DNA of 64,000 nucleotides. It comes from an uncultured Planctomycetota bacterium (GTDB lineage: Bacteria > Planctomycetota > Planctomycetia > Gemmatales > Gemmataceae). The position numbers were made by a program, and so were the translations under genes. The stretch lies in NCBI GenBank assembly GCA_963718635.1, contig OY970367.1:4499922-4563921 (forward strand). The letters are read 5' to 3'. The notes beneath the pieces were generated by a model that saw nothing but the letters and a program-made list of their open reading frames with translations, searched no databases and was not told where the DNA came from. Below, piece after piece: positions 4,835 through 60,802 of the stretch (the first letter of the stretch is position 1; each line of letters opens with the position of its first letter).

Positions 4835-4888
4835 GCCCTTCAGGAAATATTTCCTGAAGGGCTTTTCCGAGAAATTCGTGGAGAAACA
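4835..4888. repeat. Family-A palindromic element (reverse orientation): 28-bp perfect palindrome around GGAAATATTTCC plus conserved box (reverse complement)
   Basis: gcccttcaggaaatatttcctgaagggc followed by ttttccgagaaattcgtggagaaa, which is the reverse complement of the TTTCCCACGATTTTCTCGCAAA box seen at 58 kb. Confidence 0.8.
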
Positions 4889-4952
4889 GATGGCGCGTGG
4901 CCAGCCGGAAGCTTCAGCGACGGAGGAAAGAGTAAAAACGAACACGACCGAT

Positions 4953-5066
4953 AGTCGCTTTTTGCGGAGCGAAAAGCGACACTTGTTCCCACGAGGGAAA
5001 AAGCTATCGGTTAATATTCCGGAAATATTTCCAGAAGCTGAAACCTGAGAAAATCGTGGGAAAACG
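4953..5066. repeat. Hairpin (agtcgcttt..aaagcgact around GCGGAGCG) plus a family-A element copy (ttccggaaatatttccagaa + reverse-complement box ctgagaaaatcgtgggaaaac)
   Basis: Read directly. It shares the GCGGAGCGAAA(A)G motif with the long hairpin at 58005-58066 and the box/palindrome with the 58 kb array. Confidence 0.75.
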
Positions 5067-28505: not shown

Positions 28506-28547
28506 AGGCCAAAGTTGATTGTCGCAGATCAGCAGCAAAGAAATCAG

Positions 28548-28630
28548 GCGCGACGCGGAGGCTTTGCGCAGCGGAGCGATTTCAGCCGGAAATCGCTCCG
28601 CTGCGCAAAGCCTTCATATCGCGGCTAACG
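28548..28630. repeat. Family-B nested hairpin element: perfect 24-bp stem GGCTTTGCGCAGCGGAGCGATTTC / GAAATCGCTCCGCTGCGCAAAGCC
   Basis: Read directly. It is intergenic, between the bioDA start and the ThuA stop. Confidence 0.85.
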
Positions 28631-28777
28631 ATAAACGCGCTTGATAATTTTCATTTCGGCTCCTTCTTTTCCGGCGGCAAGATCGGCTTGAACTCACCTT
28701 TCCCTTTTCGATCTAAATTTTTGTTAAGGTCCGCAGCATCGAAGACGACCTTCGCCCCTCCTTCCGGGATGTCAATT

Positions 28778-29709: not shown

Positions 29710-31740
29710 TTGAACGCCGTCCGAACCTCTCGGGTCCATTTTTTCATGCATCGCGAAGTCTCTGATGTCGACGATCTGTTCGGGCGAGCCGAAACTCTTG
29801 GCCTTTATCTGTTGACGGCCGGTCTCGCTCTGTTGATTGGCCGTGATCTCGCTCCATCGGTTTTGCCTTGGCTTGGGCTCGAGTCGATGTTTGCGGGGCG
29901 TGAACTCTTTGGATATCGCTATGCTCTTCTGGCGGCCATCATCGGCGGCGCTCGGATCCTTTTTCATTCGCTGGAGGCAATGTTCGAAGGCCGTTTCGTT
30001 GCGGAAATCGCCATCGCCGTCGCGGCTATCGGCGCCATTTTGTTGCGCGAGCCCTTGGTGGCTGCAGAAGTCATATTTATCGCTCAGCTCGGCGAATGCC
30101 TTGAGGCCTGGACCTTAGCCCGCGCTCAGCACGGCATCCGCAAACTGGTGGAAGTTTTTCCTCAGCGTTGCTGGTTGCTGCGCGATGGCCAAGAAGTTCG
30201 CGTTTTGATCAACGAAGTTCGCCGGGGCGACAAGGTTGTTGTCAAGCCGGGGGGCAAGATTCCGGTTGACGGAGTAGTGCTCGAAGGCGAGTCCTCCGTA
30301 GATGCCAGCGCGTTGACAGGCGAAAGTATCCCGCTCGATCGCGTTCCTGGCGATGCGGTCTTGGCAGGCAGCCTCAATCAATTCGGGCAACTGACGATTG
30401 AAGCGAAGAAGGTTGCGGAAGAGACAGTTGCCGGCCGGGCTATCCAATTGACCGCACAGGCCCTGCGGAATAAAGCGCCAATCGAACGAACGGTCGATCG
30501 CTATGCTTCCTGGTTTCTACCTGCGGTGCTAGCCGCCGCAATGCTGATTTTCTTGCTGAATGTCGTTTACCAAACGAGCCTCCGTCCGGCGGAAGTCCGC
30601 CTTTCTTTCAACGTAGCAGCCCGGCTTAGCCTTTATCCGGCGCTGGCGGTCCTAGTAGTGGCGTGCCCTTGCGCATTGGTATTAGCGACGCCAGCGGCCG
30701 TGATTGCTGCGCTCGGCCGTCTGGCCGGCACCGGCATCCTTATCAAAGGCAGCATCGCGCTGGAACGCTTGGCACAAGTTCAGGCATTTGCATTCGATAA
30801 AACGGGCACACTGACGGAAGGCAAGCTGGAGCTCGGCGACATCATTGCGTTCAACAATCTAACCGACAACGATATTCTTCGCACGGCAGCCTTGGCCGAG
30901 CAAGGGAGTGAGCATCCGCTTGGCAAGATGATCGTTGACGAAGCGCGTTCGCGCGTTGCTCATGAGAGCCGTCGCCAGATTTCAAGCTTTTCCCGGCGGA
31001 GGAGTCGGCGCGGATGATGATGGCGCCGCCATACTTGTCGGCACCCGCCGGCTTTTAGAAGAGCAGCATGTCGGAGTCTCCGCGTCCGCAATTGATGCCA
31101 TTGCCAGACTTGACGAAACAGGTCAAACGTCTCTGTTGGTCGCACGCAATGGGGTTCTGCTTGGCATCATCGGCGCTCGAGACCGCGTTTGCGCCGATGC
31201 GGCCGACGTGTTGCAGGAATTGCGCAACGCCGGAATCGAACAAATCACCATGTTGACCGGCGACCGTGCTTCCGTTGCCCGAACGGTCGGCGAACAACTT
31301 AAAATTGATGACATACGCGCCGAGCAGCTTCCTAATGAAAAAGCCGATTTAATAGCAGCCAATCATGCAAGAACATGCTACGTCGGCGACGGCATTAACG
31401 ATGCGCCAGCGCTGAGCTTGCGCCTCAGTGGGGATCGCTGTGGGCCGAGGTACCGAGCTGGCCGCAGCGTCGGGCGACATTGTCGTTCTCGGTGAACCTC
31501 TGCGCTATCTGCCTTTGCTCTTGCGCTTATCGCGCGAGACAATGCGGTTGATTCGCCAGAATATCCTTATCTTCGCATTCGGCGTGAACATCGTTGGCAT
31601 CGTCTTCACCGGCTTGCTTTGGCCGCTCTTCGCAACGTCACCCGAGCTTTACGACAAGGCCCCGCTGGTGGGCGTCATTTATCATCAGCTCGGTTCGCTG
31701 TTGGTCTTGTTCAATTCGATGCGGCTGCTCGCATTCGAAC
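29710..31740 (+). pseudogene. P1B-type (heavy-metal) P-type ATPase, interrupted by two frameshifts (~30950-31010 and ~31425)
   Basis: TGES, CPC (VACPCALVLATP), DKTGTLT, SEHPLGK, MLTGDRASVA and VGDGINDAPAL are all present, but spread over three frames (29710..31017, 30935..31495, 31428..). There is no stop between the ATPase C-terminal TM helices and the downstream SPFH domain. Confidence 0.7.
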
Positions 31741-32976
31741 GCCGTGCTCCTGAAACGTGGATCGAGTGGAAACTTCGCTATCGGCTATTCGAACTGTGGG
31801 CGGAACGCAATCTTGATGCTGATCGTTTGCTGCATGCTGCAGTCGATTATCGTAAATCCATTCTTATTGGAGTGGTTACCTTGCTCTTTGCCGGATGGAT
31901 CGCAAGCGGGACCACGGTTGTCGAAGCAGATGAACTCGCAGTCGTTCAACAGTTCGGGCAAATTCAGGACAATCTGAAGCCGGGGTTACATTGGTGTTGG
32001 CCTTGGCCAATTGATGTCGTTCGTAAGATCAAACCCGCTGAAATCAAAGTCGTGTCAATTGATTTTCGAGATCGGTACGCGGTTGATGGCGATCTCCAAA
32101 CATCGGTGGACTACGACGATACGACCTGGACAAGCAGTCACGGCGGAACGGAAGGACGGAACGCATCGCTCTTCACGGGCGACCGCAATCTTGTGGATGT
32201 CCGCGCCAGCGTTCAGTACACGATTACCGAGCCGAGAGCCTATCTGTTCGCGGCACGGCAGCCGCAAAACTTGATCCGCACGGCTGGCGAAGCCGTCCTG
32301 CGCGAATTCATTGGCAGCCACCCGTTCGTTGAACTGCTCACGACGCAACGGCTCGAAATGCAACGGAAAATTGCTGAAAAGCTCGAGGAGCAGCTTGCCG
32401 GTCTCAACGGCGACGGCATCGGCATCCACGTTGTGGGCGTAGTCATTCACGATCTCCATCCGCCGTTGCTCGTCGCGAAGGATTACTATCGTCTCGCCAA
32501 GGCGCTTCAGGAAAAAGAGCAACGCCGGCATCGTGCCCATGCGGAAGCGGCGCGTGATTAAAAGCCGTGCCATTGAGGATGAATACAAGCAATCGAGTAG
32601 CGCTCGCAGGTCCGCCAATGAAATCGTTGAAGATGCCCGTTCCAACAGCGCCGAACTTTTAGGTTGGCAGCGTGCTAGGCGAGAAGTGAGCGCCGCGCAG
32701 GAATGGGAGATGTTCGCACATTTTGCCCACCGACTCGAATCGGGAGCGGACATCGCCGTCGCCTACGCGGACGCTGTTCTGGAGGAACAGGCGCTGCTGT
32801 CGCTACGGCGTTCACTGATCGACTTCAACTTGTCCTGGACCGCCATCGGCGCCGTGCTTCAGGGTCGCGACAAGGTCATCATCGATGCGGAGCAACCGGG
32901 CGGAAAAATGCACTTGTTCTTATTTGACCCCGACTTGCTACGCCCAGGGCTAGTGTTCCCTTCGATTCAGAAATGA
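31740..32976 (+). pseudogene. HflK-like SPFH/band-7 protein, frameshifted (~32540); in-frame continuous with the ATPase tail
   Basis: TM ILIGVVTLLFAGWIASG then the SPFH core ...ELAVVQQFGQIQDNLKPGLHWCWPWPIDVV. The coiled-coil C-terminus continues in ORF 32533..32976. Confidence 0.6.
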
Positions 32977-33021
32977 AGGTGGCTTGAAGTGCCAGCCTTT
33001 GAAATTGTTTGAGTTTATCCC

Positions 33022-34008
33022 TTGGAAGGATTTAGCGTGTCTCGTTTCAAAGTGATTGTGCTTCTGCTGCTGTTTATGCTGTGGGCCCAGTCGGCACTCT
33101 ACACAGTTGACCAATCCGAATTCGCCTACGTCACACGTTTTGGCGAGCCCGTGCTAGTGCAGGACGGCGCCACGTCCGCAGGTTTCCATAGCAAATGGCC
33201 ATATCCGATCGAATCGGTTCGACGGATCGATCGACGTATTCAGATCATTGACCTACCTCCCACGGAGCCGTTGACGCGCGATGCCGTCGACAAAGAGGTG
33301 GGCAAAACGCTGACAGTCGATGCCTTCGTCTGCTGGCGGATCCCCGATGCCGAAGCCGCCGATCGTTTTGTACGTGCCGTGGGGACGATGGAACAAGCCC
33401 GCCGGTTGTTGACTCCGCGCATCAACGGGAGGCTGACGGCGATCATCAGCAATGTTCCGTTCACCGATCTTTTCGGTGTCGCCGATGATCGCGAGGTCGA
33501 GAAACGATCCGAAAGCATACGCCGTAAATTGCTCGGTTTTGAAAAGCTCGGCGCTAACGACGTCGATGAGCCGTTGCCAACGACGATCTTGCGAGAGTAT
33601 GGCATTCAAATCCTTGATGTGCGCTTACGCCGGCTGAGCTATCCGGAGGCGGCCTTGCCGAGCATCATTGAGAGCATCAGCGAGCGCTTGAAAGAGAAGG
33701 TGACGAAAATCGAAACCGAGGGCGCTCAACTTTACATTCAAATTGTCGAAGATGGAAAGTACGAGGCCGCTAAGATTGAGAAGCGAGCTGCGACAGAGAA
33801 GCGGATTATCGAAAGCAAAGCCGATCTGGAAGCCAATGAAATTCGCCTGCGTGCAGAAAGTCACGACGTAGAGTTTGCTCGCTTCTGGCGCAAAATGAAG
33901 ACGTTGCAAGCAAGCATGTCCAATTCGAATGACACTCTTCTGCTGTCGGGCAAACATCCCTTGTTCGACTTGCTATTGCGGCCGCCGCAAGAGGAGAAGC
34001 CGAAATGA
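33022..34008 (+). CDS. HflC-like SPFH/band-7 protein
   Basis: N-terminal TM, then YTVDQSEFAYVTRFGEPV... and a long coiled-coil C-terminus. Confidence 0.75.
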   Translation: MEGFSVSRFKVIVLLLLFMLWAQSALYTVDQSEFAYVTRFGEPVLVQDGATSAGFHSKWPYPIESVRRIDRRIQIIDLPPTEPLTRDAVDKEVGKTLTVDAFVCWRIPDAEAADRFVRAVGTMEQARRLLTPRINGRLTAIISNVPFTDLFGVADDREVEKRSESIRRKLLGFEKLGANDVDEPLPTTILREYGIQILDVRLRRLSYPEAALPSIIESISERLKEKVTKIETEGAQLYIQIVEDGKYEAAKIEKRAATEKRIIESKADLEANEIRLRAESHDVEFARFWRKMKTLQASMSNSNDTLLLSGKHPLFDLLLRPPQEEKPK

Positions 34009-34973
34009 AACGGCTTGCCCTCGGCGTCTTCGCATTGTTTGGGGCGTATCTCTTCACGGGCATCGCTGAAATCCATCCGGGTGAGCGTGCAGTGGTGAAA
34101 CGATTCGGCCGCATTGTTGCGCGTCCTGGTCCCGGCCTATGGTTCGGGCTGCCATGGGGCATGGACACTGTCGACCGCGTGCCGATTACTCAAGTTAGGC
34201 GCATCACCGTCGGCTTTCAACCTCGCGAGGAAGGCGACTCAGCTGACGCTGGGGTCATGTTGACGGGCGATGAAAATCTCGTGGAACTTCGCGTCCATAT
34301 CGACTTCGCTGTCGCGGAAGGCGATGCGAGCCTGGATGAATATGTGCTCCATCGGGCTCAAGCCGAGACAATAATTGGACGCGAAACCGAAGCCGCATTG
34401 ACGGAGTGGGCTTCGGGAGCGTCCATCGATCGACTACTCATAACGGGAAGCAGCGAACTGCCGCGCTGGTTGATGACACGGGTTCAAGGCCGCCTTGAAC
34501 CGTATCACCTTGGCGTGCGCATCCAAAGTGCCAGCGTGGTGCGGGTAGCGCCGCCGGAAGAGGTCCGGCGCGATTTCGAGCGCGTCAACCAGGCGGAAGC
34601 CGTCAACCGCACCCGCGTTTCGCAGGCACGCCAGGAAGAAAGCCAGCTTCTCCGGCAGGCGGAGAGTACAGACTATCGTCTTCGCCAGCAAGCGATCGCG
34701 TATAAGGAACGCAGTAACGCTATTGCTCAGGCCGATGCGGACGCCTTCGAGCTTCGAGTGACACAATACTACCGCACGCGGCGCGCAAACCCGCAAATTT
34801 TATCGCTCATCTGGTGGGACGAAATGAGCAAGCTCTTCGGACTTTTGCACGAGCGCGGCCGTATTGAACTGCTGGATTCTTATCTAGGTCCCGATGGGCT
34901 CGATTTATCACGGTTGGGCCTTGGAAAAGCGAAACAGGAAGAGACAGCAAAAAAATATGGAACCAAAAAATAA
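34005..34973 (+). CDS. HflK-like SPFH/band-7 protein (second copy)
   Basis: TM, then IHPGERAVVKRFGRIVARPGPGLWFGLPWGMDTV. The start overlaps the previous stop (ATGA). Confidence 0.7.
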   Translation: MKRLALGVFALFGAYLFTGIAEIHPGERAVVKRFGRIVARPGPGLWFGLPWGMDTVDRVPITQVRRITVGFQPREEGDSADAGVMLTGDENLVELRVHIDFAVAEGDASLDEYVLHRAQAETIIGRETEAALTEWASGASIDRLLITGSSELPRWLMTRVQGRLEPYHLGVRIQSASVVRVAPPEEVRRDFERVNQAEAVNRTRVSQARQEESQLLRQAESTDYRLRQQAIAYKERSNAIAQADADAFELRVTQYYRTRRANPQILSLIWWDEMSKLFGLLHERGRIELLDSYLGPDGLDLSRLGLGKAKQEETAKKYGTKK

Positions 34974-41533: not shown

Positions 41534-41604
41534 TTGGCGAGCCGAGCAGCGTAAGCTTCCGGGTTCTATCATTACCCGGCAGCCTGCGCTGCTCGGCTCG
41601 CCAG
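41534..41604. repeat. Family-C hairpin element (TTGGCGAGCCGAGCAGCG...CGCTGCTCGGCTCGCCAG) at the 3' end of the helicase gene
   Basis: Read directly: 17-bp perfect outer stem plus an inner imperfect stem, with loop tctatcatt. Confidence 0.8.
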
Positions 41605-42382: not shown

Positions 42383-42410
42383 TTGGCGAGCCGGGAGCGT
42401 CAGCGATCGG
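42383..42410. repeat. Partial family-C element (left arm only: ttggcgagccgggagcgtcagcgatcgg)
   Basis: It matches the left arm of the 57007 copy, with no obvious right arm. Confidence 0.4.
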
Positions 42411-42507
42411 AGAAAGAGCGCGAATCATCGCAAATTTTTTCCAGTCGTTTACGCGCTCGGCTTGCCACGAACACTCAGCGCATTCATGTTAAACGATTTC
42501 TCGTGAG

Positions 42508-43593
42508 TTGATCTTCTCATCCATGGGCGGTGTCTCCATGAGCGCATCGATGCAGGTTCCTTCTGCAGGCAGACGGCATTTTTTTCACTCGGCCGCAGCT
42601 ACCCTATATGCCTCGGCCAATGCTTCCGCAAATGATGCGGAAGCAATTCCGCTGCGCCCATTCGGCAAGACCGGCGTCAAAGTTTCTGCCTTGGGCCTAG
42701 GCGGGCATCATCTCGGCGATGCCAAAGATGTTGAAACCGCTATCCGGATCGTGCACGAAGCCATTGATGCAGGCGTGAACTTTTTCGACAACTGTTGGGA
42801 ATACTACAACGGCCGGAGTGAGAATTGGCTTGGGCGCGCTTTGGTGGGCAAACGCGACCACGCCTTTGTGATGACCAAAGTTTGCACGCACGGGCGCGAT
42901 AAAAAATTAGCGCTGAAGATGCTCGACGAGTCGCTGCGCAGGTTGCGGACGGATCACCTCGACCTCTGGCAGGTTCACGGCGTTACATTCGATAACGACC
43001 CAGCGCTAGCTTATGCAAAAGGAGGCGTTCTCGAAGCCTTCGACGAAGCGAAAAAGGCGGGCAAGGTTCGCTTCACCGGCTTCACCGGTCATAAAGATCC
43101 TGACATTCACCTGAAGATGCTCAAGCTGGGCTACCCGTTTGATGCCGTGCAGATGCCATTGAATTGTTGCGACGGCACTTTCCGTAGTTTCGAACAATTA
43201 GTGCTGCCGGAACTGAAGCGGCGCGACATTGCCGGGCTCGGCATGAAGGCCTTCGGCGGCACGGCCAGCATGATCAAAAAGGGTCTGGTCAAGCCAGAGG
43301 AAGCACTTCGTTATGCCATGAGCCTTCCAGTGGCGACAACGATCAGCGGCATCGATTCGCTGGAAGTGTTGAATCAAAACCTCAAAGTGGCGCAAGGTTT
43401 TAAGCCCTATACGGATGCGGAAATGAAAGCGCTGCGTGACCGTTGTGCCGAGCAGGCAGGCGATGGTCGACACGAACTTTTCAAAGTCACTCTAAAATAC
43501 GACAACCCCCAAGTGCGCGAGCCCCATGAATTTCCGCTCGATCCACAGATCAAGGAATTGAAGGAAGAGTTCAAAGAAGCCGGAACGCCGTAA
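42508..43593 (+). CDS. Tat-secreted aldo/keto reductase family oxidoreductase
   Basis: Twin-arginine motif SAGRRHFFHSAAA, then an AKR fold (GVNFFDNCWEY, LDLWQVHGV). Confidence 0.8.
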   Translation: MIFSSMGGVSMSASMQVPSAGRRHFFHSAAATLYASANASANDAEAIPLRPFGKTGVKVSALGLGGHHLGDAKDVETAIRIVHEAIDAGVNFFDNCWEYYNGRSENWLGRALVGKRDHAFVMTKVCTHGRDKKLALKMLDESLRRLRTDHLDLWQVHGVTFDNDPALAYAKGGVLEAFDEAKKAGKVRFTGFTGHKDPDIHLKMLKLGYPFDAVQMPLNCCDGTFRSFEQLVLPELKRRDIAGLGMKAFGGTASMIKKGLVKPEEALRYAMSLPVATTISGIDSLEVLNQNLKVAQGFKPYTDAEMKALRDRCAEQAGDGRHELFKVTLKYDNPQVREPHEFPLDPQIKELKEEFKEAGTP

Positions 43594-43651: not shown

Positions 43652-44698
43652 ATGAACGACAACAGTCACGAGACACCATCAGCCACTCAACCACACCGGC
43701 GGCAGTTTCTTGCAGCCAGTGCCGTTGCCAGTTTGATGCCGGTCATGGCTCCAGCGAAGGATGGCAAAGAGGCAACCGATCTCGTGCCCCATCGCACCTT
43801 TGGCAAGACCAAAGATCGCGTCTCGGCGATGGGAATCGGCGGCCATACACTCGGCTTGGCGCCGACGTTGAAAGAAGCAACGCGCATCGTCGATGAGGCG
43901 CTCGACGCCGGCGTCAATTTCTTTGACAACGCCTGGGAATATCACGATGGACGGGCTGAGGAGTGGATGGGCACTGCCTTGGAGGGGAAACGAGACAAGG
44001 TGTTCTTGATGACGAAAGTTTGCACGCACGGCCGAGATAAAAAAGTGGCGTTGAAACAGCTCGATGAATCACTCAAGCGGCTGAAAACTGACCATCTCGA
44101 TCTCTGGCAAGTCCACGAAGTTGTCTACGAAAACGACCCGGATTGGCACTTTGCCAAAGGGGGAGTGATCGAGGCTCTCGACGAAGCGAAGAAAGCGGGC
44201 AAAGTTCGTTATGTCGGCTTTACCGGGCACAAGCATCCGCGCATTCACTTGAAGATGCTGGTTCACGATTACCCATTTGATGCAGTTCAAATGCCGCTCA
44301 ATTGTTTCGACGGCACCTATCGCAGTTTCGAACAGCTGGTGCTGCCGGAATTAAACAAGCGAGGCATTGCACCGCTAGGAATGAAGAGTATGGGCGGCAA
44401 CGGACGGCCAATCATCAAAGGAGCGATCACTGCCGAAGAGGCGCTGCGTTACGCCATGAGCTTGCCAGTGGCGGTGACCATCAGCGGCATTGATTCGCTT
44501 GATGTCTTGCAGCAAAATCTGAAAGTGGCGCGTGGCTTCAAACCTTATACTGATGAAGAAATGAAAGCGCTGCGTGAACAATGCGCGGCCGATGCCGGCG
44601 ATGGCCATTTGGAACTCTACAAGTCCAGCGCGAAATTCGACGGCGCCATTGGCCGGGAACAGCATGGCTTCCCCAAGCAAGAAGATCTGCCATTGTAA
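43652..44698 (+). CDS. Tat-secreted aldo/keto reductase (tandem paralog)
   Basis: HRRQFLAASAVASLMPVMAPA Tat signal. It is collinear with the preceding protein (e.g. GVNFFDNAWEYHDGRAEEWMG, FDAVQMPLNCFDGTYRSFEQLVLPEL). Confidence 0.8.
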   Translation: MNDNSHETPSATQPHRRQFLAASAVASLMPVMAPAKDGKEATDLVPHRTFGKTKDRVSAMGIGGHTLGLAPTLKEATRIVDEALDAGVNFFDNAWEYHDGRAEEWMGTALEGKRDKVFLMTKVCTHGRDKKVALKQLDESLKRLKTDHLDLWQVHEVVYENDPDWHFAKGGVIEALDEAKKAGKVRYVGFTGHKHPRIHLKMLVHDYPFDAVQMPLNCFDGTYRSFEQLVLPELNKRGIAPLGMKSMGGNGRPIIKGAITAEEALRYAMSLPVAVTISGIDSLDVLQQNLKVARGFKPYTDEEMKALREQCAADAGDGHLELYKSSAKFDGAIGREQHGFPKQEDLPL

Positions 44699-45407: not shown

Positions 45408-46262
45408 CTATCTAATCGACTTGTTCGCGAGTTCATGCCGCACGATATCGATCTCCAAATCCAGGATGTCTGCGATGTCTTGCGGATTCATTTGAAACGC
45501 CTTCATTTTCGGAACGGCCTTCAGTTTTTCCTCGATCAGCCGACGTTCCATTTGCTCATCGGCTTCTTTCATCACTTCTTGCTTGGCATCGCGAATGGCT
45601 ATTTCCCTGATTTCCTGATAAGCGCGTGACTCGCGAATGTCGTGAATCTTCAACATGGCTCTAATCTCCTGCCAGCTTAGGCCCGGCAGCTTGTGCATGA
45701 TAACGGTTTCAATCAATTGTATCAGATCAACCTGCAAGGCTTCATCGTCGATTTCCTGCTTAGTACGTGCAACCAGGTCGCGGGCCGTTGCCGCAGCTTC
45801 GTTGTCCTCCTGTCGAAGCAAGTATAAAATCGACATACCCAAGGGCGCGTCGGCCAGTTCGGGAAGTTCGTCCAGATAATACCGGCGTATCAGGCCCGCA
45901 TCGATCAATGCTTGGTAAGGTTTCAACCCCTTCGGTTCTAACGCGCGAGTCGCGAATAAGACTACGCCAATGAAGGGTTGGGCAGGGTCATGTTGTTTGA
46001 GATAGATATAAACCTTCGCCAGCAAATCCGCGAAAACGCTGGGCAGGCGATAAAACTGAACTTCTAAAAAGTACACCGACCGGTCGGCTTCCTTAGGTCG
46101 AAATACGCCGTCAGTTCGAAAGGAGGTGGCTTTGAATTCGTGGGCTTCGTATTGGTAGCGGGCGGCCATTTCGTTGGCTGAATCGATCGGCAAGCCAAGC
46201 AGCAAAAAGAACGTATCGAGCCGGGTTTCGAAGAGCCGATAGAAAATGGGATCGGTAACCAT
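45408..46262 (-). CDS. Rpn-family recombination-promoting nuclease / putative transposase (DUF2887 N-terminus + DUF4351 C-terminus)
   Basis: MVTDPIFYRLFETRLDTFFLLLG is the DUF2887 start. PD-(D/E)XK core ...SVYFLEVQFYR.... The acidic coiled C-terminal tail is typical of DUF4351. Confidence 0.65.
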   Translation of the reverse strand: MVTDPIFYRLFETRLDTFFLLLGLPIDSANEMAARYQYEAHEFKATSFRTDGVFRPKEADRSVYFLEVQFYRLPSVFADLLAKVYIYLKQHDPAQPFIGVVLFATRALEPKGLKPYQALIDAGLIRRYYLDELPELADAPLGMSILYLLRQEDNEAAATARDLVARTKQEIDDEALQVDLIQLIETVIMHKLPGLSWQEIRAMLKIHDIRESRAYQEIREIAIRDAKQEVMKEADEQMERRLIEEKLKAVPKMKAFQMNPQDIADILDLEIDIVRHELANKSIR

Positions 46263-47283: not shown

Positions 47284-47731
47284 CCCTCGACTCCTTCGGA
47301 AAAAGACTTCAGAACCATCCGAATAGGCACCGTCTTTTCCTATGAGCGCATGGGCGCCGGAACAGAGGGGACGCGGTGAACTTTTGAAGAGTTCAGGTCC
47401 ATTACTACGCGTTCGGTCAGCCGTATCCAACCCGGCCAGAGACTCGTAGCCGAGTACAGCTTTGTTGGTACGATCAAAGCGCAATCTGCGTGGCTAGTTG
47501 CGAAAGCGCAGGCTTTTTTGCGCAGCAAAGCGATGTCCCCGCAATTGACTCCGCTCTGCAAGGCCTCTGCATGGCGGCGAGCGGGCTGCCTGAATGGAGC
47601 GCCGACCGCGAAGATTTTCAACTTTTTCAATACAAATCAACCAGATGTATGTGCGGCGCGTAATCCGAGATTTGACTCATCGGCGATGAGATTGATCAGA
47701 TACCCGATTAGGAAGCAAGAGGGCGCCATTC

Positions 47732-48722: not shown

Positions 48723-48788
48723 TTGGCGAGCCGCGTAAGCGGCCGGGTTCCGCATTCACCCGGCCGCTTACACGGCTCGGCTCGCCAA
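48723..48788. repeat. Family-C hairpin element between convergent genes
   Basis: ttggcgagccgcgtaagcggccgggt-tccgcattc-acccggccgcttacacggctcggctcgccaa. Confidence 0.8.
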
Positions 48789-52155: not shown

Positions 52156-52259
52156 AAAAAGCGGATTCTACGGGGATGGCCGTAAGCGGCCCATCGTGCA
52201 GGAAGGATAATAGGAGTATACCAAGGGTGCTCGGGAGAGGGCAAGCTGTTGGTGGCTTA

Positions 52260-52336
52260 GGCGAGCCGCGAGCGTCAACGACCGTCGCAATACCTTTCGA
52301 GTGTCTTCTCCTGTCGCTTCACGCTCCCGGCTCGCC
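52260..52336. repeat. Family-C hairpin element
   Basis: ggcgagccgcgagcgt ...40 nt... acgctcccggctcgcc. Confidence 0.7.
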
Positions 52337-53391: not shown

Positions 53392-55328
53392 TTAGTCTAT
53401 GTAGAAAAATTCGCTTGCATTCAACAGGGCGAGGCACCATTCCACGACAGCGCTTTCGTTTGGTGACGAAACGCTCTTGCTCCCTTTGTTTCCGAGGGCG
53501 GTCGCCAAATCTTTTGGGTTCGCCGGGGTGAGAGCTTCTTCCCGTTTCGATAAGTAATCCCGCGCTGCCTGCCGTTCTTCGCTGGTGATAGATCGTTGGA
53601 ATGCAAGCAGCCAGCCTCGCGAAATCAAGGTTTCGCGCTCGGCGTTGCATTCGCGCAGCAACCGGCCCGCCATATAGCGAGCCTGTTCGATGGCGACTGG
53701 CCCGTTCAACATGGTCAACGCCTGCGAACTGACGACCGTGTTGTCGCGCCGGCCTTGGCTTTCAATCGGCAGCGACATGTTGAACGTTTCAAAAAAAGGC
53801 AACGTGATCGAACGGCGCACGACGAGATAGATGCCCCGCCGGTTGAACTGAGCCGGGTCGTCCGAGATTTTCCAGTTCTTATGGATCAGCGTATCGAGCG
53901 CCTTGGAGTCGATGGGAGGCACCACGGCGGGGCCGTACATTTCCAGGTTAAGCGTACCGCTGGCCGCGTGAAGGTGATCCCAAACAATCTCCGCTTCGAG
54001 ACGCCGGCGCGGGAAGCGCGAGAGCCATCGCGCATCGGGGTCGGATAGCGCTTGAGCGGGTGTGGCAGTCGCTGCCATTCGATAAGTGTTAGAGGCCATG
54101 ATCAGCCGATGCAGATGCTTCAGGCTCCAATTGTTTCTGACCAGTTCGCGCGAGGAAGTCGAGCAATTCGGGATGGGTTGGCGGCTCTCCTTGCAAGCCG
54201 AAATCGTTCGGCGTTCGCACGAGGCCATTGCCGAAGTGCCACTGCCAGACGCGGTTGGCAATCACGCGGGCGGTAAGCGGATTTTCCGATGAAGTCAGCC
54301 AGCGCGCCAGGTCCGACCGGCGTTGGCCGGATTCATTTTTTCGAGAAACGTCGAGCGCTTTGCCGCCGGGCAGCGACGTACAAAGAGCCGGCTCTGCGAC
54401 AGCGAGCGGAGCGTCGATTTCACCTCGCCTTAACAGGCGAACTTCACCAGTTTGAGGACGCGCAGTCAAGATCTTCGCCACACCGCTTTTGGTGTTGAAC
54501 ACCTTCGGCTCGCTAGCGGCGAAGATCGCTTGCAGCCCGAAGTAATCCTCCTGACTGACAGGGTCGTATTTATGGGCATGGCAGCGACGCAGCCGACAGT
54601 TAGGCCGAGAAAGGCGGCGCCGGTCGTGTCAGCCAGATCGGTAAGCCGCTGGTATTCGATCACCTTCGGCCGAGCGATGCCCCCTTCAAAGGCGAAGGGG
54701 CCCACGGTGGCAAAGCCGGTCGCCAGCTTGGCTTCTTCCGAATCGGGAAAAAGTTCATCGCCGGCGATCTGCTCTTTGATGAACTGGTCGAAAGGCTTGT
54801 CCGAATGGAATGAGCGGATCACATAATCGCGGTAGAGAAACGAATGGGGATAAAGCGTGTCGAGTTCGTAGCCCGAACTGTCCGCATAGCGCACGACATC
54901 GAGCCAATAGCGCGCGTAACGCTCGCCGTAGTGCGGGGACTCAAGCAGTTCATCAACCACGGTCTGCGAGTTGCCGGGACCTATCTCGGGCAGCGCTTGG
55001 AACGCAAGTATTGCTTCGGGAGTAGGCGGCAACCCTGTCAGATCAAAGTGAATGCGTCGATAGAAAGTCGTCCGATCGGCCGGAGGCGCGGGCGTCAGAT
55101 GGTTTTCCGTCAATTTGGCAAAGATAAAAGCATCAATCGGATTGCGCGCCAGGCTTTATCTTTGACAGGCGGGATAGCAGAGTCCGTGATCGGTTGAAAT
55201 GCCCAATGCCTTTTCTGCCGCTCTTTCAAATCTACCTTGCTGCCAGCCTCGGGGTCAGCCAAAGCCGTAACGGTCGACACCAACCAAAGAAGAACAATAA
55301 CGCTCGTTTTCATGAAGTCTCGCTGCAA
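53392..55328 (-). pseudogene. DUF1549/DUF1553 (PSD1-type, no PSCyt1 head) protein fragmented by three frameshifts
   Basis: Pieces in four ORFs: a signal peptide + KRHWAFQPI (55110..55328); FDLTGLPPTPE (54466..55113); LARWLTSSENPLTARVIANRVWQWHFGNGLV (54089..54502); the C-terminus ...EWCLALLNASEFFYID (53392..54261). Confidence 0.7.
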
Positions 55329-55398: not shown

Positions 55399-55485
55399 GT
55401 TAGCCGCTACGCGAAAGCTTTGCGCAGCGGAACGTTTGACACTGAAAGCGCTCCGCTGTGCAAAGCCTTCGCGTAGCAGCTAACG
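55399..55485. repeat. Family-B nested hairpin element (imperfect copy)
   Basis: gttagccgctacgcgaaagctttgcgcagcgg...cgctccgctgtgcaaagccttcgcgtagcagctaacg. Confidence 0.8.
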
Positions 55486-55662
55486 ATATTTTGTTTCTTG
55501 TTGTTGATCTTCCGACTCTAACGATTATCCGCTCCTGCTTCTTCCGGCGTCAAAAGTACCTAAATTCAGCGCTCAAAACGATAGATGGCGGCCCTTGCAT
55601 CCGTCGATATACGTTGGCGGTCTTTCTCTCAAGACTGCCGGGCGATCGCACGAGGATAAAGC

Positions 55663-56995
55663 ATGCCAGACCCCTATCGTGCTACAGCGCCCCGCTCCTG
55701 GGGGAAACCTCTCTTGCTGCCGATCCTCGCGCTGATGGTCCCCCTTACCGGCTGTCGGCTTGGTCGCAGCACAGGTGCGCCCGTCGCCTTCTCCGCGACG
55801 ACTGAAGTAATCGTCCCGGCGGCTACCTCTGAAATCAAAGACTTCAACGAATGCCTTGCTTTGGCGATGGCAACGCATCCGCGACTTATCGCCACGCGTG
55901 CCTCGCTGGCAGCGTCTGAAGATGGCAAGCGCGCCTTGGACCGAATGCATCTGCCGGCTACGCTCGACCCGCAAATTCCTGTTCGGCGTCAGCAAGCAGC
56001 AGTAGGTTTAAATGCCCCCGTCGCAGGCTTGGCCCAAGCCGAGCTTGAAGCGGCTTACGCCGTTACGCGAACTTATGTCACGGTTCTTTATGCTCGCGAG
56101 CAAGAACGGCTGGCTCAAGGCGTCGTGGAACGCCTGAAAGCCGTGAATCAGGCCGCTTCCGAAGCATTGGAGGCCGGCGCCCGCGATGCCTCCGCCGCCG
56201 ACGTAAAGCGGACGCTCGTCTATGCCCGGCTCGCGGAGACGAAACGAATCCAGGCGACGCAAGGCGTCAAGCGGGCGCTAGTCGCCTTGCGCGAGGCCTC
56301 TGGACTCGGAGCGGAGACCATTCTCGATGTGAAAGGCGATCGCCTGTCGATCCCTGACACGCGACCCAATCGGGATGAGGTTCTGGCCGGTGCTTTAGCG
56401 AAGCGCGGCGAAATCATTCAGACTAAAGTGTTCGCGCAAGTCGCCTGCCTTGAAGTCGAAGCTCAAGGCACAAGTCGCAGTCAACGCATGCCGACGTTTG
56501 CCTCCGGGACGGATATTCACGCTCAACAAGTTCCTCAGGGCGCAAACGGAACCGATTATCGTCCCGCCGGCATCAATCCCGAAATGCCAACCATGTTAGT
56601 CGGCTCGCGGGCAGAGCGAGTCAAACATGCCGGCACGCTTACGCGCTCGAGCCCAGGCTGTGGTCGAATCGACGCAGAAGCTCATTACGCTCGAATGCGA
56701 GGATGCCTTTTTGCGCTGGGAAGAAGCATACGGGCAAACGACCTTGGCCCGTGAGGCAGCTGAGGCCGGCGAAAAATTAGCCGACGAACTCCGCAAGCAG
56801 TTTACCTCTGGCTTAAAAGTAAAAGTGGATGAGGTAATCACCGCGCGGGTGCTCGCATCACAAGCCCGTTCCGAATACAACGAATTCGTCTATCGCCAAT
56901 TGATCGCCCTGGCCGATCTGGAACGCGTCTCCGGCGGCGCGTTTCGATCCGGCCTGCAGGAGATGCTGCAAGCGGCTTCGACGACGAAGGAGTGA
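55663..56995 (+). pseudogene. TolC-like outer-membrane efflux lipoprotein, frameshift near 56640
   Basis: Lipobox LTGC. OEP-type helical repeats. The C-terminal part continues in ORF 56627..56995 (AQAVVESTQKLITLECEDAFLRWEEAYG...). Confidence 0.55.
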
Positions 56996-57006: not shown

Positions 57007-57086
57007 TTGGCGAGCCGGGAGCGGTAGCGACCGTAGAAAGTTGTGCAAAGCGATTGCTCCGGTCGTTAACGCTCCCGGGTTGCCAA
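57007..57086. repeat. Family-C hairpin element between convergent genes
   Basis: ttggcgagccgggagcg...cgctcccgggttgccaa with an inner gcgaccg/cggtcg stem. Confidence 0.65.
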
Positions 57087-57117: not shown

Positions 57118-57801
57118 CTAGCGCAACTTTTGCAAGCGCAGCACATCGCCGAGCCATTTCATATCGTCGTCGGCCAATTTCGCCACGGGCTCAGTTTTGT
57201 AATCAATTTGACTGCTGAAGTTGCCCTGGTCGTAACAGCGGGCAAAGGTTGCTTGTAGATCGAGAACCGTATCGCGGTCGTCCGAGGCGAGCGGGATCTT
57301 GAAACGAGGCAAGCGTTTTTGCAGCGTCGTCGTGTAGATTTCGTAACGTTCCGGTTGCGTCGAACGAGTGACCGTGATGGCATAATCCCATTCGGGTAGG
57401 CCTTCGCGCGAATAGTCGAGCATCGGCGCCCCTTGCAGCGACAAGTCGATCTCTACAACACTGGCGCTCTGGCTGCGCACCTGCTTACGCGTCTCGAGAT
57501 AGGCTTCGCGACCTTGCGAACGGAGCTTGTTGATCGGGCTGACGACATCGATGAGCGTAACCAGGCGATTGTCCGAGCGCTGCCGGACTTCAATGAACTC
57601 TTCCTGGTGCTGTTCGCGAATAATCGATGTAAACAGAGGCTGTTCAGTAGCGTACGAACGCTGCCCGATACGGGCGCGATAGCGATCGACGAGGCCGGGC
57701 AGCAAGATCTGGTAAAGGCACGCAACCAGTTGATGATGGAACGACGGCCATAGCTTGTCGTCTTCGAGATACGGATCCATTCCTGGCAAGGGGCACGGCA
57801 T
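57118..57801 (-). CDS. DUF4058 family protein (restriction-endonuclease-like fold family common in cyanobacteria/planctomycetes)
   Basis: The N-terminus MPCPLPGMDPYLEDDKLWPSFHHQLV matches the DUF4058 start consensus (PGMDPYLE...W..FH). Confidence 0.6.
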   Translation of the reverse strand: MPCPLPGMDPYLEDDKLWPSFHHQLVACLYQILLPGLVDRYRARIGQRSYATEQPLFTSIIREQHQEEFIEVRQRSDNRLVTLIDVVSPINKLRSQGREAYLETRKQVRSQSASVVEIDLSLQGAPMLDYSREGLPEWDYAITVTRSTQPERYEIYTTTLQKRLPRFKIPLASDDRDTVLDLQATFARCYDQGNFSSQIDYKTEPVAKLADDDMKWLGDVLRLQKLR

Positions 57802-58004
57802 GGTGCTTCTCTCCGACGAAGGCTCGCTGCCCGCACAACGGGGCAATCACCACTCCTTATGGGGGAACAACCGCGCTGTTCCCAATCATTACCGAGGTAA
57901 TGGGCATTCTATCCACCCCGGACAGGGTCTGACTAGGTGATAGCGCTGAAAAAATCGTTGTCAGCAAGGCCGGCTTAGGCGCCAGAGAATGAGTTGGCGT
58001 TTTA

Positions 58005-58066
58005 TGGTGGCCTTTCGCTCCGCGAAAGGAAAGCTCTTCGCGGAGCGAAAGGCCACCATAGGATTC
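58005..58066. repeat. Long perfect hairpin (20-bp arms GTGGCCTTTCGCTCCGCGAA / TTCGCGGAGCGAAAGGCCAC, 10-nt loop) leading the family-A array
   Basis: Read directly. Confidence 0.85.
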
Positions 58067-58089
58067 GTTTCATTCCGCGTCGTTCTTTC

Positions 58090-58760
58090 TCCCACGATTT
58101 TTTCGCAAAGTGCCTGTGGGAAATATTTCCCACAGGCACTTTGATCAACCTCGTTGACCCCGACGTCGAGGGATTGCCGAGAAAGCATTTGCCCGCCGAA
58201 AGGGCTCCGCAATGCCTTCGCACCGCAAACGAGCTTAGTTTCTCATCGCGCGTTTTTCCACGATTTTCTCGCATTCCAGGTTCGGGAAATATTTCCCGAA
58301 CCTGCACTGTCAGACTGACGGGCGATAAAGCGTCAGGCGTTAGAATCTGGCGCAAGCGAGACGCTTGCGCTACGGGGTTTTGAAAGACCATCATCCGCTT
58401 TCCCACGATTTTCTCGCAAAGTGCCTTCCGGAAATATTTCCGGAATATTAACCGATAGGAATTTTTCATGTGGGGGCAGGCGTCCCGGGGCTCCGTCGCG
58501 TACGCGTCCGGCTAACAAATCATTGCGCGTTTTCCCACGATTCTTTTGGATTTCGCCTACTGGAAATATTTCCAGAAGGCGGTCGCGTCAGAATGACGAG
58601 CTATTGATCGTTGAGCGTTTGAGTTTCGGACGGGCGAGACGCTTGTCGAGTTTAATCGAAGAGTTATCACGCGTTTTCCCATGATTTTATTGGAAAGTCG
58701 CTTCTGGAAATATTTCCAGAAGCGACTTCTTGTTAGCCGCGACGCGGGGGCTTTGCGCAG
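58090..58760. repeat. Array of 5 family-A units, spaced 132-165 bp. Each unit is a conserved ~40-bp box (ATCAtcGCGCGTTTTCCCACGATTTTCTCGCAAAGTGCC) plus a 20-38 bp perfect or near-perfect palindrome centred on GGAAATATTTCC, with compensatory arm changes
   Basis: The five palindromes, read directly: gtgcctgtgggaaatatttcccacaggcac; caggttcgggaaatatttcccgaacctg; ttccggaaatatttccggaa; gcctactggaaatatttccagaaggc; gaagtcgcttctggaaatatttccagaagcgacttc. Confidence 0.9.
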
Positions 58761-58828
58761 CAGAGCGTTTGCCGGCCGAGAACGCTCTGCTGTGCAGAGC
58801 GTCTGCGTCGCGGCTAACAAAACTTTTT
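58742..58828. repeat. Family-B nested hairpin element (outer GTTAGCCGCGACGC/GCGTCGCGGCTAAC perfect)
   Basis: Read directly. It abuts the last family-A unit. Confidence 0.85.
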
Positions 58829-58946
58829 TCGCGACATACCAGCTTAGGCGCGCTAAAAATGGAAAATGAAAAAAGCTGGCGGCAAGGACGTGAAGTCCTT
58901 GCCGCCAGCTTTACGCTTCAAATGGTCTCGCAACTCGCGGCAGCCC

Positions 58947-59570: not shown

Positions 59571-59972
59571 GGTAATTAACCTCCCGACGATGTTTAATTG
59601 TGGCGCCGGTCCGGGGCCGTCCTCTAGCCGGCACTCGATCGCTCGAGCCCGCCTGCGCCATGATTCGGGGTCGCCTCCTCGCAAGTGCCAGCGCTCTCCA
59701 GCGGAGATTGCCGACCTGCGCTTCTGTATAAGCGCCTTAGAGGTCCGAACTCTGTCCTCTTTCATCGGGATGATTGGCAGGCGCGCTTATCACGATCTCA
59801 AAGGAAAGCGCCTGAAATCGCGAAACTACCTCGCTTTCCATCTTTTGCAGCGATTGCTCGGATTTAGGAAAGCAGCGAAGGATAAGAAGGATTGCCGACC
59901 GGCGAAGAGTTGATGGTTGTAGCGATTGAGCGAGGCGCTCGCGCGACTCTTCACAAAGCTTGCGAATCGCGG

Positions 59973-60802
59973 CTAAACGGCGCGTCGATCAATGGCGGGG
60001 GTGCCGCCGGTGCGCGAAGCGACTAGAGCGGCAAAGCGATTAGCGAAATTGGCGCTTTCCGCGAGCGTTCGGCCTTCCAGAATCTGCGTAATAAGTGCGG
60101 CTGCGAACGAGTCACCCGCGCCAACCGTGTCGGCTACCTGAATGGGAATGCCAACAACCTCTACCCGCTCAATACCGCGCGTAATGACGCAACCTCGGCT
60201 GCCGCGGGTTTCGACTATCGTGCGATCTCCCGGCTCCTGTGCGATTAAGCCGGCTAGTTCGACCGCTTCGTGATCGTTCATTTTCAGCCAGTCGGCCGAC
60301 TCGACTAAGCGGCGAATTGTGGCCCGATGGACGAACGGCGGTCTCAGGTTGAAGTCGCAGATGCGGATGGCGCTTTTCGCCTGAGCGATAAATTGCAAAA
60401 TCGTAGACCGTGAAGGATCGTGACGAGATGCCAACGTGCCAAAACAGACCGCGGGCGCACACTGTGCCAATTCGGCCAACGGCTCACTCCATTCGAGATA
60501 ATCCCAAGCGACATTGTCGCAGATCGTATAACTCGGTTGGCCGGCCGAATCGACCTGCACTGTCACCGTGCCCGTCGGTCTCTTGGGATCAGTTTGAATA
60601 AATTGATCGGACATCCCAAGTCGACGTACCTCACGGCGCAACTCCCGACCTGGTTCATCGTCACCGACGCGGCTGACGATTACTGCGGAATGACCAAGTT
60701 GTAAGCAGTGAAAAGCAAAATTGAACGGCGCGCCGCCGGGCGCGGACCGCTTGGCAGTAGGTCCCAGAGGATTTCGCCAATGCCAATGATGGGATTGGGC
60801 AT
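59973..60802 (-). pseudogene. PfkB-family carbohydrate kinase (fructokinase/ribokinase-like), frameshift near 60740
   Basis: The C-terminal DTVGAGDSFAAALI motif is in ORF 59973..60641. The N-terminal MPNPIIGIGEILWDLLPSG lies in another frame (60680..60802). Confidence 0.6.

Follow-up and report, generated by a model that had tools for sequence, protein, structure and literature searches.

The 64-kb stretch of DNA analysed here (the window) carries a series of related palindromes between a DUF4058 gene and a Cys-rich 272-aa ORF, with two more copies near a zinc-ribbon/caspase-like gene, all three neighbours having the identities given in the preliminary description. The question raised by this locus is what these palindromes are, and whether they act as DNA, as RNA or through an encoded peptide. 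The composite pattern CCAYGAWTY-N18-GGAAATATTTCC had seven sites in the window and none in shuffled sequence; five were on the + strand (58.08–58.73 kb) and two on the − strand (4.8–5.1 kb), and these comprise all of the forward and inverted copies noted previously. Exact copies of GGAAATATTTCC (n = 7) are located at 58119, 58285, 58430, 58562, 58706, 5021 and 4843, where the chance expectation with up to one mismatch is 0.15. The existence of a real, non-random family of box-plus-palindrome units is therefore confirmed. The units are non-coding, as the reading frame shifts from one unit to the next and the core does not vary at wobble positions; the same two properties ruled out a reading as small peptides or RiPP precursors.

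Each unit is ~75 nt in length and consists of a 5′ box of ~19 nt, 13 variable nt and an invariant 12-bp palindrome centre (the core), the 13 variable nt being the left arm of a longer palindrome of 20–38 nt. Pairwise identity was 100% for the core, 81% for the box, 41–48% for the arms and 29–41% for the flanks, which bears out the invariant centre claimed at the outset. The box, by contrast, had been put at ~40 bp; strict conservation spans ~19 nt (consensus TTTYCCCAYGAWTYTNTYG) and its GCAAAGTGCC portion is common to U1 and U3 only. The distance between box and core was constant in 24/24 copies although the intervening 13 nt vary, and the core half-site TTTCC recurs in the box. Start-to-start distances in the array are 166, 145, 132 and 144 nt. 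Likeness between whole units is ~70–80% over 58 nt, and Tandem Repeats Finder made no call at the array period because the units are too diverged.

Five units form the array on the + strand. U1 (58085–58143) joins its box to a 38-nt perfect palindrome (58106–58143) with half-arms of 19 nt; U2 (58251–58304), recognised by pattern, palindrome and fold, has a 28-nt perfect palindrome (58277–58304; half-arms 14 nt) and is followed by an A-type tail; U3 (58396–58445), of B-type, has a 20-nt palindrome (58426–58445; half-arms 10 nt); U4 (58528–58581), also followed by an A-type tail, has a 28-nt palindrome with one A.A mismatch (58554–58581; half-arms 14 nt); and U5 (58672–58728), of C-type, has a 34-nt perfect palindrome (58695–58728; half-arms 17 nt) that abuts a long hairpin. 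On the − strand, B-type unit U6 (5017–5066) has a 20-nt palindrome with one T.G pair (half-arms 10 nt) and a right flank and tail as in U3, while C-type unit U7 (4835–4888) has a 28-nt perfect palindrome (4835–4862; half-arms 14 nt) beside another long hairpin. The palindrome lengths reported earlier agree with these measured half-arms, and the arm pairs quoted with them were all correct. Of the perfect spacer-less palindromes of at least 14 nt in the window, six of seven are units of this family.

The arms covary around the invariant centre, as had been proposed. Changes on both sides were found for 11 of 17 arm pairs, a value reached by none of 500 shuffles, and the covariation score was 0.451, whereas shuffles gave 0.154 and sliding of the partners no more than 0.104. 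In 5/7 units the arms are perfectly complementary over 14–19 nt despite the low inter-unit identity of the arms, and single-strand DNA folds of 5/7 units gave z-scores of −3.1 to −8.1 relative to shuffled sequence (U1, −8.1; U5, −6.5). Among 13 extra units with an intact core, peptide-compatible palindromic half-arms had a median of 13 nt, against a median of 7 for mismatched left/right pairings. The preliminary description took this covariation, together with the conserved apex, to imply a hairpin of RNA or single-stranded DNA. The covariation itself stands, but it does not prove a selected hairpin, because template switching during replication homogenises and extends the arms of quasipalindromes without selection (PMC8794818, PMC7202029, PMC13100816). 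Further, U3 and U6 retain box and core with weak stems (z −1.6 and −1.0 respectively), so a long stem is not indispensable.

Other repeats are interleaved with the units. The A-type tail of U2 (58309–58367, + strand) contains GTCAGACTGAC and GCGCAAGCG-AGA-CGCTTGCGC as small hairpins; its paralogues are the A-type tail of U4 (58587–58645, + strand) and tails read in ORFs P0124 and P0125 elsewhere in the genome (see below). The two window copies are 71% identical at 278-nt spacing, in agreement with the two-unit period previously seen in the spacers. The long hairpin next to U5 (58730–58822) is ~90 nt in length, with 40-nt arms of 88% complementarity, and is a member of a distinct, dispersed family whose other copies are at 4708–4799 (adjoining U7), 28543–28633 and 55399–55488. 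A perfect hairpin with 24-nt arms (58003–58060) marks the left edge of the array and has GCGGAGCGAAA in common with a hairpin at the other locus (4950–4985). The motif GCTTAGGCGC has four exact copies in the window, three of which are at array borders: at the left edge (57973–57982, + strand), at the right edge as a direct repeat of the former (58842–58851, + strand), and at the second locus past U7 and its long hairpin (4657–4666, − strand).

Outside the array lie the sigma-70-type promoter of the DUF4058 gene (TAGTCA-18-TAGAAT; 57906–57935, − strand) and an intrinsic terminator of the upstream Cys-rich gene (58872–58912, − strand; 18-bp stem and T run), which delimits the inserted repeats on their other side. 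The terminator scan gave this site and a weak one at 58036–58050, with no T run after any unit palindrome. Both loci in the window are upstream or divergent promoter regions. A promoter reading of box and core was rejected, as sigma-70 and terminator scans placed no site in any unit; by eye, an ECF-like GAAC-N17-CGT on the reverse strand fitted U2 only, and neither sigma-54 nor Bacteroidetes-type promoter motifs fitted. The known sites considered (DnaA box, parS, Noc-binding site, CodY, ARG box and tyrosine-recombinase core) fitted at a few bases only.

Further units were found with a six-frame peptide profile of the units, which identified ORFs P0122–P0126, and then with an exhaustive HMMER search of 1.84 billion representatives, which added P0174. 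All six are spurious ORFs of the same 6.49-Mb genome (a single contig of 6,489,944 bp), none of them encoded in the window, and each crosses two or three units, 128–202 nt apart, in changing frames. Together they traverse 17 more units, bringing the genome to at least eight clusters and ~24 units. The family is thus not restricted to the window, a case that the preliminary description had allowed for, since there are at least six more clusters in the same genome. All ~24 copies are intergenic, with palindromes of 20–38 nt; there are 2–5 units per cluster, mostly spaced at 130–200 nt, and within each of the eight clusters every unit has the same orientation, head-to-tail throughout. Cores are mutated in P0125 unit 3 and P0174 units 2–3, as would be expected for non-essential repeats.

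Tails are of a few types (A, B or C), one per unit, and with them the units form modules of ~130–200 nt; the tails are alike in pairs (R2 and R4, R3 and R6, R5 and R7). The eight clusters have the module orders A-B-A-C, B-C, B-x-C, B-C-x, A-A-x and A-x-x, with the order B...C seen in four, and other small hairpin repeat families are interspersed among the modules; the clusters are therefore mosaics. Mosaicism extends into the unit itself. The left side of U3 is 16/20 identical to U1 and its right side 17/20 identical to U6, whereas on the left U3 and U6 match at background level (10/20); likewise, P0122 and P0174 have 100% identity over 56 aa and diverge sharply at the core of the next unit. 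On these alignments two homology breakpoints fall exactly at the core, although they could reflect mere microhomology given that no identical stretch is longer than the core. In an independent assembly of the organism from short reads (L007), the box and palindrome of U1 are identical base for base, and the contig stops within that palindrome. The clusters are likely to be variable-number loci, and they break short-read assemblies, as that contig end illustrates.

Among all sequence searched, the family appears to be confined to one genome. The degenerate composite pattern gave, among the matches listed from genome contigs, only two chance ones (Chlorobiaceae, Janthinobacterium), which lacked an extended palindrome; metagenomes had no match to the exact 17-mer box and core or to a pattern of the invariant positions only; a viral sequence scan gave no unit; and distant blastn gave no match in plasmids and phages. 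Over the whole window Rfam returned nothing at gathering threshold, and a permissive search gave generic or miRNA-like hairpin matches only (13–32 bits versus thresholds of 40–114). A covariance model found no unit in ~100 kb of loci from planctomycete relatives. In these relatives the intergenic DNA at either locus is short: the DUF4058 promoter is kept with no array upstream, and the region upstream of the zinc-ribbon gene is ~250 nt in length compared with ~900 nt here. By this comparison the repeat blocks represent lineage-specific extra DNA. The comparison with relatives that had been envisaged showed no units in any relative at the loci examined. A REP-RAYT-like link to the DUF4058 gene was also rejected, as homologue loci at 85–89% identity (L003–L006, L008–L012) contain no unit, and a literature search on the core sequence and DUF4058 produced nothing relevant and no similar motif.

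Our preferred explanation, to which we assign a probability of about 0.5 and which is based as a whole on one genome, is a lineage-private, non-coding, modular interspersed mosaic repeat acting at the DNA level. We infer that a single trans-acting protein, encoded elsewhere in the genome, would read box and centre sequence-specifically; that the arms would allow the site to be extruded in vivo as a hairpin or cruciform; and that the AT-rich centre would be the point where copies recombine or break. Recombination of this nature, through exchange at cores and the duplication of blocks one or two modules long, could make clusters grow, shrink and shuffle, and multi-module blocks may now and then be copied to new intergenic sites. 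The element would be mainly selfish or neutral DNA, with any host role secondary; however, invariance of the 12-nt core (21/24 copies) exceeds that of most selfish repeats and could reflect a host function. Against the proposed mechanism, no recombinase, transposase or HUH (rolling-circle nicking) gene was present among ~48 Pfam-scanned ORFs of the window, and no target-site duplications could be defined. The stem itself may be dispensable or a by-product of template switching, as the B-type units (U3, U6 and two more) are weakly stemmed.

An RNA-level element is possible but not probable. Transcription of the module would yield a small RNA or a portion of a UTR, whose hairpin, with an invariant GGAAAUAUUUCC top and a U-rich upstream box, would be recognised for binding or processing by an RNA-binding protein, and the tandem copies would be comparable to multi-copy sRNA loci or protein-titrating RNAs. 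The head-to-tail arrangement of all clusters and the covarying stem with its conserved apex are in keeping with this, as are modules R2–R5, in which the box-to-palindrome strand has more G.U-compatible pairs and a lower folding energy, and the A-type tail hairpins, in which A-to-G changes that leave just G.U pairing on that strand are tolerated. In R1 and R7, however, the asymmetry is opposite, and G.U versus A.C asymmetry as a pointer to the transcribed strand is equivocal. When peptide codons were read by eye, the G.U asymmetry also appeared reversed in unit 1 of P0123 and unit 1 of P0126. The scans found no sigma-70-like promoter or intrinsic terminator in or between units, and the miRNA-like Rfam matches are far under threshold; the 58-kb units run antisense to the two neighbouring genes and are clear of the promoter of one and the terminator of the other; and a perfect spacer-less DNA palindrome exceeds what an RNA hairpin needs.

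It is unlikely that the units form an array of duplex-DNA binding sites for a regulator, nucleoid or partition-type protein, with a dimer on GGAAAT|ATTTCC, another subunit three helical turns off on the box and its TTTCC, and extended arm symmetry as a neutral by-product of replication template switching. Such a reading has the merit of accounting for a linear box-to-core distance that is fixed over variable sequence and fits B-DNA geometry, for the TTTCC half-site shared by core and box, and for B-type units that hold both elements with no long stem; template switching is documented to extend inverted-repeat arms, and both window loci are at upstream or divergent promoter regions. It accords poorly with perfect complementarity of the arms in 5/7 units at 41–48% arm identity, and a site spacing of 130–200 nt, at least eight clusters and decayed copies are unusual for operators. 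Nor is there a tie to a conserved promoter, that of the DUF4058 gene being kept in array-less relatives, or a similar motif in the literature searched.

Slightly less probable is that the unit serves as substrate for a hitherto undescribed site-specific system, by which the AT-rich apex of a hairpin, once extruded, would be nicked or would undergo strand exchange. An HUH-type or recombinase-type enzyme, encoded elsewhere in the genome, would then assemble and shuffle the clusters, with ~140-nt apex-to-apex modules as ‘cassettes’ or unit-length products, giving a non-coding analogue of attC or rolling-circle-origin arrays from which it would differ in the conserved apex and the fixed-distance recognition box.

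We consider it very unlikely that the units constitute a genuine REP/RAYT family or a set of non-autonomous, IS200/IS605-derived PATEs, for which a Y1 HUH transposase from another part of the genome would drive movement in the form of single-stranded hairpins. They are extragenic, present in many copies in a single lineage, and have a hairpin with a covarying stem and conserved 5′ flanking sequence; a resemblance to REP/BIME elements or IS200/IS605-type hairpins had been suggested. By definition, one end of a REP stem-loop bears a tag of four unpaired nucleotides, GTAG or CGTC (PMC3733652). No such tag was found within 8 nt of the stem foot in 6/7 units, and the CGTC in the remaining one is consistent with chance. 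In REPIN doublets and alternating BIMEs, units are commonly paired in inverted orientation, whereas those described here are all direct and never form inverted pairs; it is also the apex that is conserved and not the stem, and the box keeps its distance from the apex and not from the stem foot. No related left-end/right-end hairpin pair was visible, and the RAYT/IS200-like Y1 transposase sought in the 64-kb window was not among its ~48 Pfam-scanned ORFs.

Finally, although the partly palindromic repeats are regularly spaced and one frame yields a recurring F-P-T-I-F-S...K-Y-F peptide, a CRISPR-like array (near-identical 23–50-nt repeats, unique spacers and usually cas genes), an integron cassette array or tandem small peptide genes are effectively refuted, the first two as the preliminary description had it, by repeats that are only ~70–80% alike with ‘spacers’ that recur between clusters as tails A, B and C, by a window that has no cas or integrase genes among its Pfam-scanned ORFs, by an invariant centre and variable arms (the opposite of attC), and by unit-specific frames with invariant core wobble and no starts or ribosome-binding sites.

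Hairpin repeats are widely interspersed in bacterial genomes but, to our knowledge, only a handful have been explained in phyla other than Proteobacteria and Firmicutes, and Planctomycetes have no characterised example. The present family has an unusually clean architecture, with an invariant 12-bp centre, a box at fixed distance, covarying arms, head-to-tail modules and homology breakpoints at the centre, and thereby leads to concrete predictions about the partner protein and the place of DNA cutting or exchange. A partner, if found, might turn out to be a nuclease, recombinase or DNA-binding protein of a new, hairpin-specific kind; if none exists, the family would be a natural example of template switching keeping diverging palindromes perfect, and a caution against taking covariation as proof of RNA structure.

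Among known systems, REP/BIME elements share with this family short extragenic palindromes in many copies, species-specific families, mosaic clusters in which palindromes are interleaved with other small motifs, and stems that can covary, and they are presumably handled in single-stranded form, as hairpins; they differ in that the conserved part here is the apex and a 19-nt box at fixed distance from it, with units spaced at 130–200 nt. PATEs are bounded by two related subterminal hairpins with short conserved cleavage motifs, whereas each module here has one box-palindrome and tail hairpins unrelated to it. In integron attC sites it is the ends (RYYYAAC ... GTTRRRY) that are conserved and the centre that varies. 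Like these units, attC sites are head-to-tail imperfect palindromes and single-stranded folded substrates, and recombination between sites would shuffle modules; unlike attC arrays, the ‘cassettes’ are 60–120 nt and non-coding, and intI is absent from the window.

HUH-endonuclease sites include the geminivirus/circovirus stem-loop TAATATTAC with its iterons, IR-II/IR-III of pT181 and the ends of IS200/IS605. In such origins a variable, covarying stem likewise closes an invariant AT-rich apex (AATATT is common to the core and TAATATTAC) beside a conserved recognition box, and units running from nick to nick would be expected to leave homology breakpoints at the apex. They are, however, single sites and not many tandem copies, and here no Rep or HUH gene is known nearby; the apex may also be paired rather than looped, as it is itself a perfect palindrome.

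The pneumococcal BOX element, said to have been described by Martin et al. 1992 and Croucher et al. 2011, reportedly consists of boxA, n tandem copies of boxB and boxC. It too is a modular non-coding intergenic repeat, with one module type reiterated a variable number of times, stable hairpins and many dispersed loci in a single lineage. The sequences are unrelated, BOX has no invariant palindrome centre, and its modules (45–59 nt) fold by boxA-boxC pairing and not through a spacer-less palindrome in each module. Prokaryotic intergenic satellites and MIRU-type minisatellites, whose scattered loci imply array duplication or transposition (PMC6749651), are comparable in having tandem non-coding units of tens to hundreds of nt at several intergenic loci per genome, and differ from the present units, which are too diverged for a tandem-repeat finder, have their conservation in box and core, and carry discrete tail types. 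In descriptive terms, with tandem modules in variable number and order, the family belongs to a BOX-like or satellite-like modular mosaic class.

Seven copies of GGAAATATTTCC are present in the 64-kb window, by comparison with an expected 0.15 even with one mismatch allowed, and each copy is preceded at an identical distance by CCAYGAWTY, a combination absent from all shuffles. Five of these units (U1-U5) are clustered on the + strand at 58.08-58.73 kb with spacings of 166, 145, 132 and 144 nt, and two further units are on the - strand, U7 at 4.84 kb and U6 at 5.02 kb. Half-arms extend 10-19 nt either side of the centre, giving palindromes of 38 (U1), 28 (U2), 20 (U3), 28 (U4, one mismatch), 34 (U5), 20 (U6, one T.G) and 28 nt (U7); the family supplies six of the window's seven perfect spacer-less palindromes of at least 14 nt. 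Pairwise identity was 1.00 in the core (the 12-bp palindrome centre) and 0.81 in the box, falling to 0.48 and 0.41 in the left and right arms and to 0.41 and 0.29 in the upstream and downstream flanks. The preliminary description of a conserved box followed by a palindrome of 20-38 bp with an invariant centre was accurate, although the box, given as ~40 bp, is strictly conserved over only ~19 nt in the alignment of the seven units. Given the low identity outside core and box, the copies are old, and what has been kept among them is solely the box, the centre and the complementarity of the arms. U1 was matched exactly in a second, independently made short-read assembly of this organism, whose contig stops within the U1 palindrome. 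An intergenic, perfect spacer-less palindrome of 62 nt was also seen in a relative (contig L005, 13973-14034); its sequence is unrelated to the unit family.

Covariation was assessed over a 17-pair helix in an ungapped alignment of the seven units. Two-sided changes were present in 11 of the 17 pairs; 80.7% of cells were paired (63.8% in shuffles) and the covariation score was 0.451 versus 0.154 in shuffles, with 0 of 500 reaching the observed value and slid partners scoring at most 0.104. As single-stranded DNA, five of the seven units folded with z-scores of -3.1 to -8.1; the remaining two, U3 and U6, which carry the B-type tail described below, folded weakly (z -1.6 and -1.0) and show that box and centre are able to persist with a short stem. 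A hairpin had earlier been deduced from compensatory change: the covariation of the arms around an invariant centre stands, but replication template switching, which can keep palindrome arms perfect (PMC8794818, PMC7202029, PMC13100816), could also keep the stem. Selection for a hairpin or cruciform substrate may act on the stem, or its perfection could merely reflect such switching.

Six-frame translations of the seven units were built into a profile, and a protein collection was searched with it for spurious ORFs across other copies. Five proteins (P0122-P0126) were found, all encoded on the 6,489,944-bp contig that encodes the window's DUF4058 protein and none inside the window. When the 155-aa spurious ORF of the window was searched exhaustively with HMMER against 1.84 billion representatives, a sixth protein was found on the same contig (P0174), and no match came from other organisms. 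Each spurious ORF reads through two to three units in differing frames, and the genome therefore holds at least eight clusters and ~24 units. Cores are 128-202 nt apart (mostly 138-146), unit orientation is uniform inside every spurious ORF, and 21 cores are intact and three visibly decayed. The peptides of the 13 extra intact-core units allow half-arms of 6-18 nt to be palindromic (median 13); when left and right arms were mismatched, the median was 7. A coding reading was rejected, as the frame shifts between units and core wobble bases are invariant.

In the window, a covariance model built from the units recovered the seven known copies and no others, and it gave no hit in ~100 kb of planctomycete relatives' loci. 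Pattern scans gave no match in metagenomes, viruses, plasmids or phages, and two chance matches among the matches listed for species-representative genomes. The databases seem to hold no close relative of the source organism, and we therefore describe the family as private to this lineage rather than unique in nature.

Otherwise the window is typical of a planctomycete chromosome, carrying PSCyt2/PSD1 families and housekeeping genes, and none of ~48 scanned ORFs contained transposase, integrase, cas or HUH domains. The 58-kb cluster is situated between an intrinsic terminator (upstream Cys-rich gene; 58872-58912, - strand) and a sigma-70-type promoter (DUF4058 gene; 57906-57935, - strand). Relatives with 86-89% protein identity keep this promoter and lack an array upstream of it. 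The zinc-ribbon/caspase-like gene has best homologues of only 57% identity, and its upstream region is ~900 nt here versus ~250 nt in them. Two uncharacterised families occur in the window, DUF2887 (45408-46262) and DUF4058 (57118-57801). Homologues of DUF4058 number more than 2900 (E <= 0.001), and those that are named come mainly from Gemmataceae or from other planctomycetes; the genomic context of DUF4058 differs among the relatives examined. Other features include a 1198-aa ORF with an N-terminal Ser/Thr protein kinase domain and a Tubulin_2 (tubulin-like) domain (16514-20110, - strand), three consecutive SPFH/Band 7 genes (31428-34973) and tandem paralogous aldo/keto reductase genes (42508-43593 and 43652-44698; 70-74% DNA identity). 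Three genes (PSD1/PSCyt2, 53392-55113; outer-membrane efflux protein, 55663-56995; P-type ATPase, 29710-31495) appear to be broken up into ORFs that adjoin or overlap, being either pseudogenes or assembly indel errors.

Beyond the ~75-nt unit, sequence sorts into a few tail types, given here for each module (R1-R7 for U1-U7). Type A (R2, R4, two P0124 units and one P0125 unit) has small hairpins CGTCAGAATGACG and GCGCAAGCG-AGA-CGCTTGCGC; type B (R3, R6 and the third units of P0122 and P0123) has the right flank GGAATATTAACCGATAG and a short palindrome; type C (R5, R7, P0122 unit 1, P0123 unit 2, P0126 unit 2 and P0174 unit 1) adjoins a separate long-hairpin repeat of ~90 nt. The order B...C was found again in four clusters. 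Tandem Repeats Finder did not detect the array, which is therefore not the product of recent simple tandem duplication.

Homology also breaks at the core. Left of it, U3 matches U1 at 16/20 nt and U6 at 10/20 (background); right of it, U3 matches U6 at 17/20 and U1 at 4/20 (unrelated). P0122 and P0174 share 56 residues (168 nt) at 100% identity and then diverge abruptly, exactly at the next unit's core. In two independent cases the homology boundary thus falls on the 12-bp centre, which fits either site-specific breakage or ordinary recombination via the sole long identical stretch.

Unit clusters are interspersed with other small repeat families. The long hairpin (GTTAGCCGCGACGCGG...CCGCGTCGCGGCTAAC), with 88% complementarity between arms of up to 40 nt, has copies at 4708-4799 and 58732-58822, which adjoin units and whose G.U pairs favour the window + strand, at 28543-28633 and 55399-55488, which stand alone, and in part at 47547-47581 and 59942-59976. 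The 10-mer GCTTAGGCGC has exactly four copies in the window, three of them at borders of the two repeat clusters (57973-57982, 58842-58851 and 4657-4666) and the fourth inside a UvrD-like gene (23661-23670); two form a direct repeat flanking the entire 58-kb array, and the 10-mer may represent an end motif or a site favoured for insertion. At the left edge of that array, a perfect hairpin (58003-58060; 24-nt arms) has GCGGAGCGAAA in common with a smaller one that lies between U6 and U7 (4950-4985). A 51-nt unit is present in three tandem copies (80-94% identical) directly 3' of the zinc-ribbon/caspase-like gene stop (1929-2081). Several kinds of short dispersed repeats occur in the genome, among them the small intergenic families D9 (4897-4930, 42383-42416, 52258-52291, 57007-57040) and D13 (41543-41603, 48727-48787).

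The units match no Rfam family, none being found in the window, and terminator and promoter scans rejected terminators or sigma-70 promoters as their identity. CRISPR and integron attC, already discounted from the first reading, were rejected on the diverged repeats with recurring 'spacers' and on the conserved centre with variable ends, respectively. The suggested resemblance to REP/BIME elements was not borne out by definition: the units lack the REP-defining GTAG or CGTC tag (PMC3733652) and inverted pairs, and conserve the apex instead of the stem. Likeness to IS200/IS605-type hairpins, including PATEs (non-autonomous derivatives), was likewise dropped, as each module has a single hairpin.

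An RNA role would accord with units standing head-to-tail and with the G.U compatibility of some changes, but the scans found no promoters or terminators with the units and strand asymmetry is inconsistent, making this unlikely. That the units form a duplex protein-binding array, as invariant linear spacing and the recurring half-site TTTCC in the box might suggest, we consider more doubtful still. The family combines sequence-specific conservation of box and centre at fixed distance with arms that vary freely yet stay complementary, units that are strictly co-oriented, modules that are shuffled and boundaries that fall at the centre; some copies have decayed, and relatives lack the family. 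The best explanation of this pattern is a mosaic repeat that acts at the DNA level and is largely selfish or neutral, a reading to which we assign a probability of about one half. A putative trans-acting protein would recognise box and centre, and clusters would evolve via block duplication and recombination at cores.

The unit family is real, well-defined and previously undescribed. Lineage-specific repeats of this sort are common, and any function or partner protein of this one would be putative; its anatomy is unusually clean and yields testable predictions. It is best filed with modular intergenic hairpin repeats such as BIME, BOX and satellite-like repeats.
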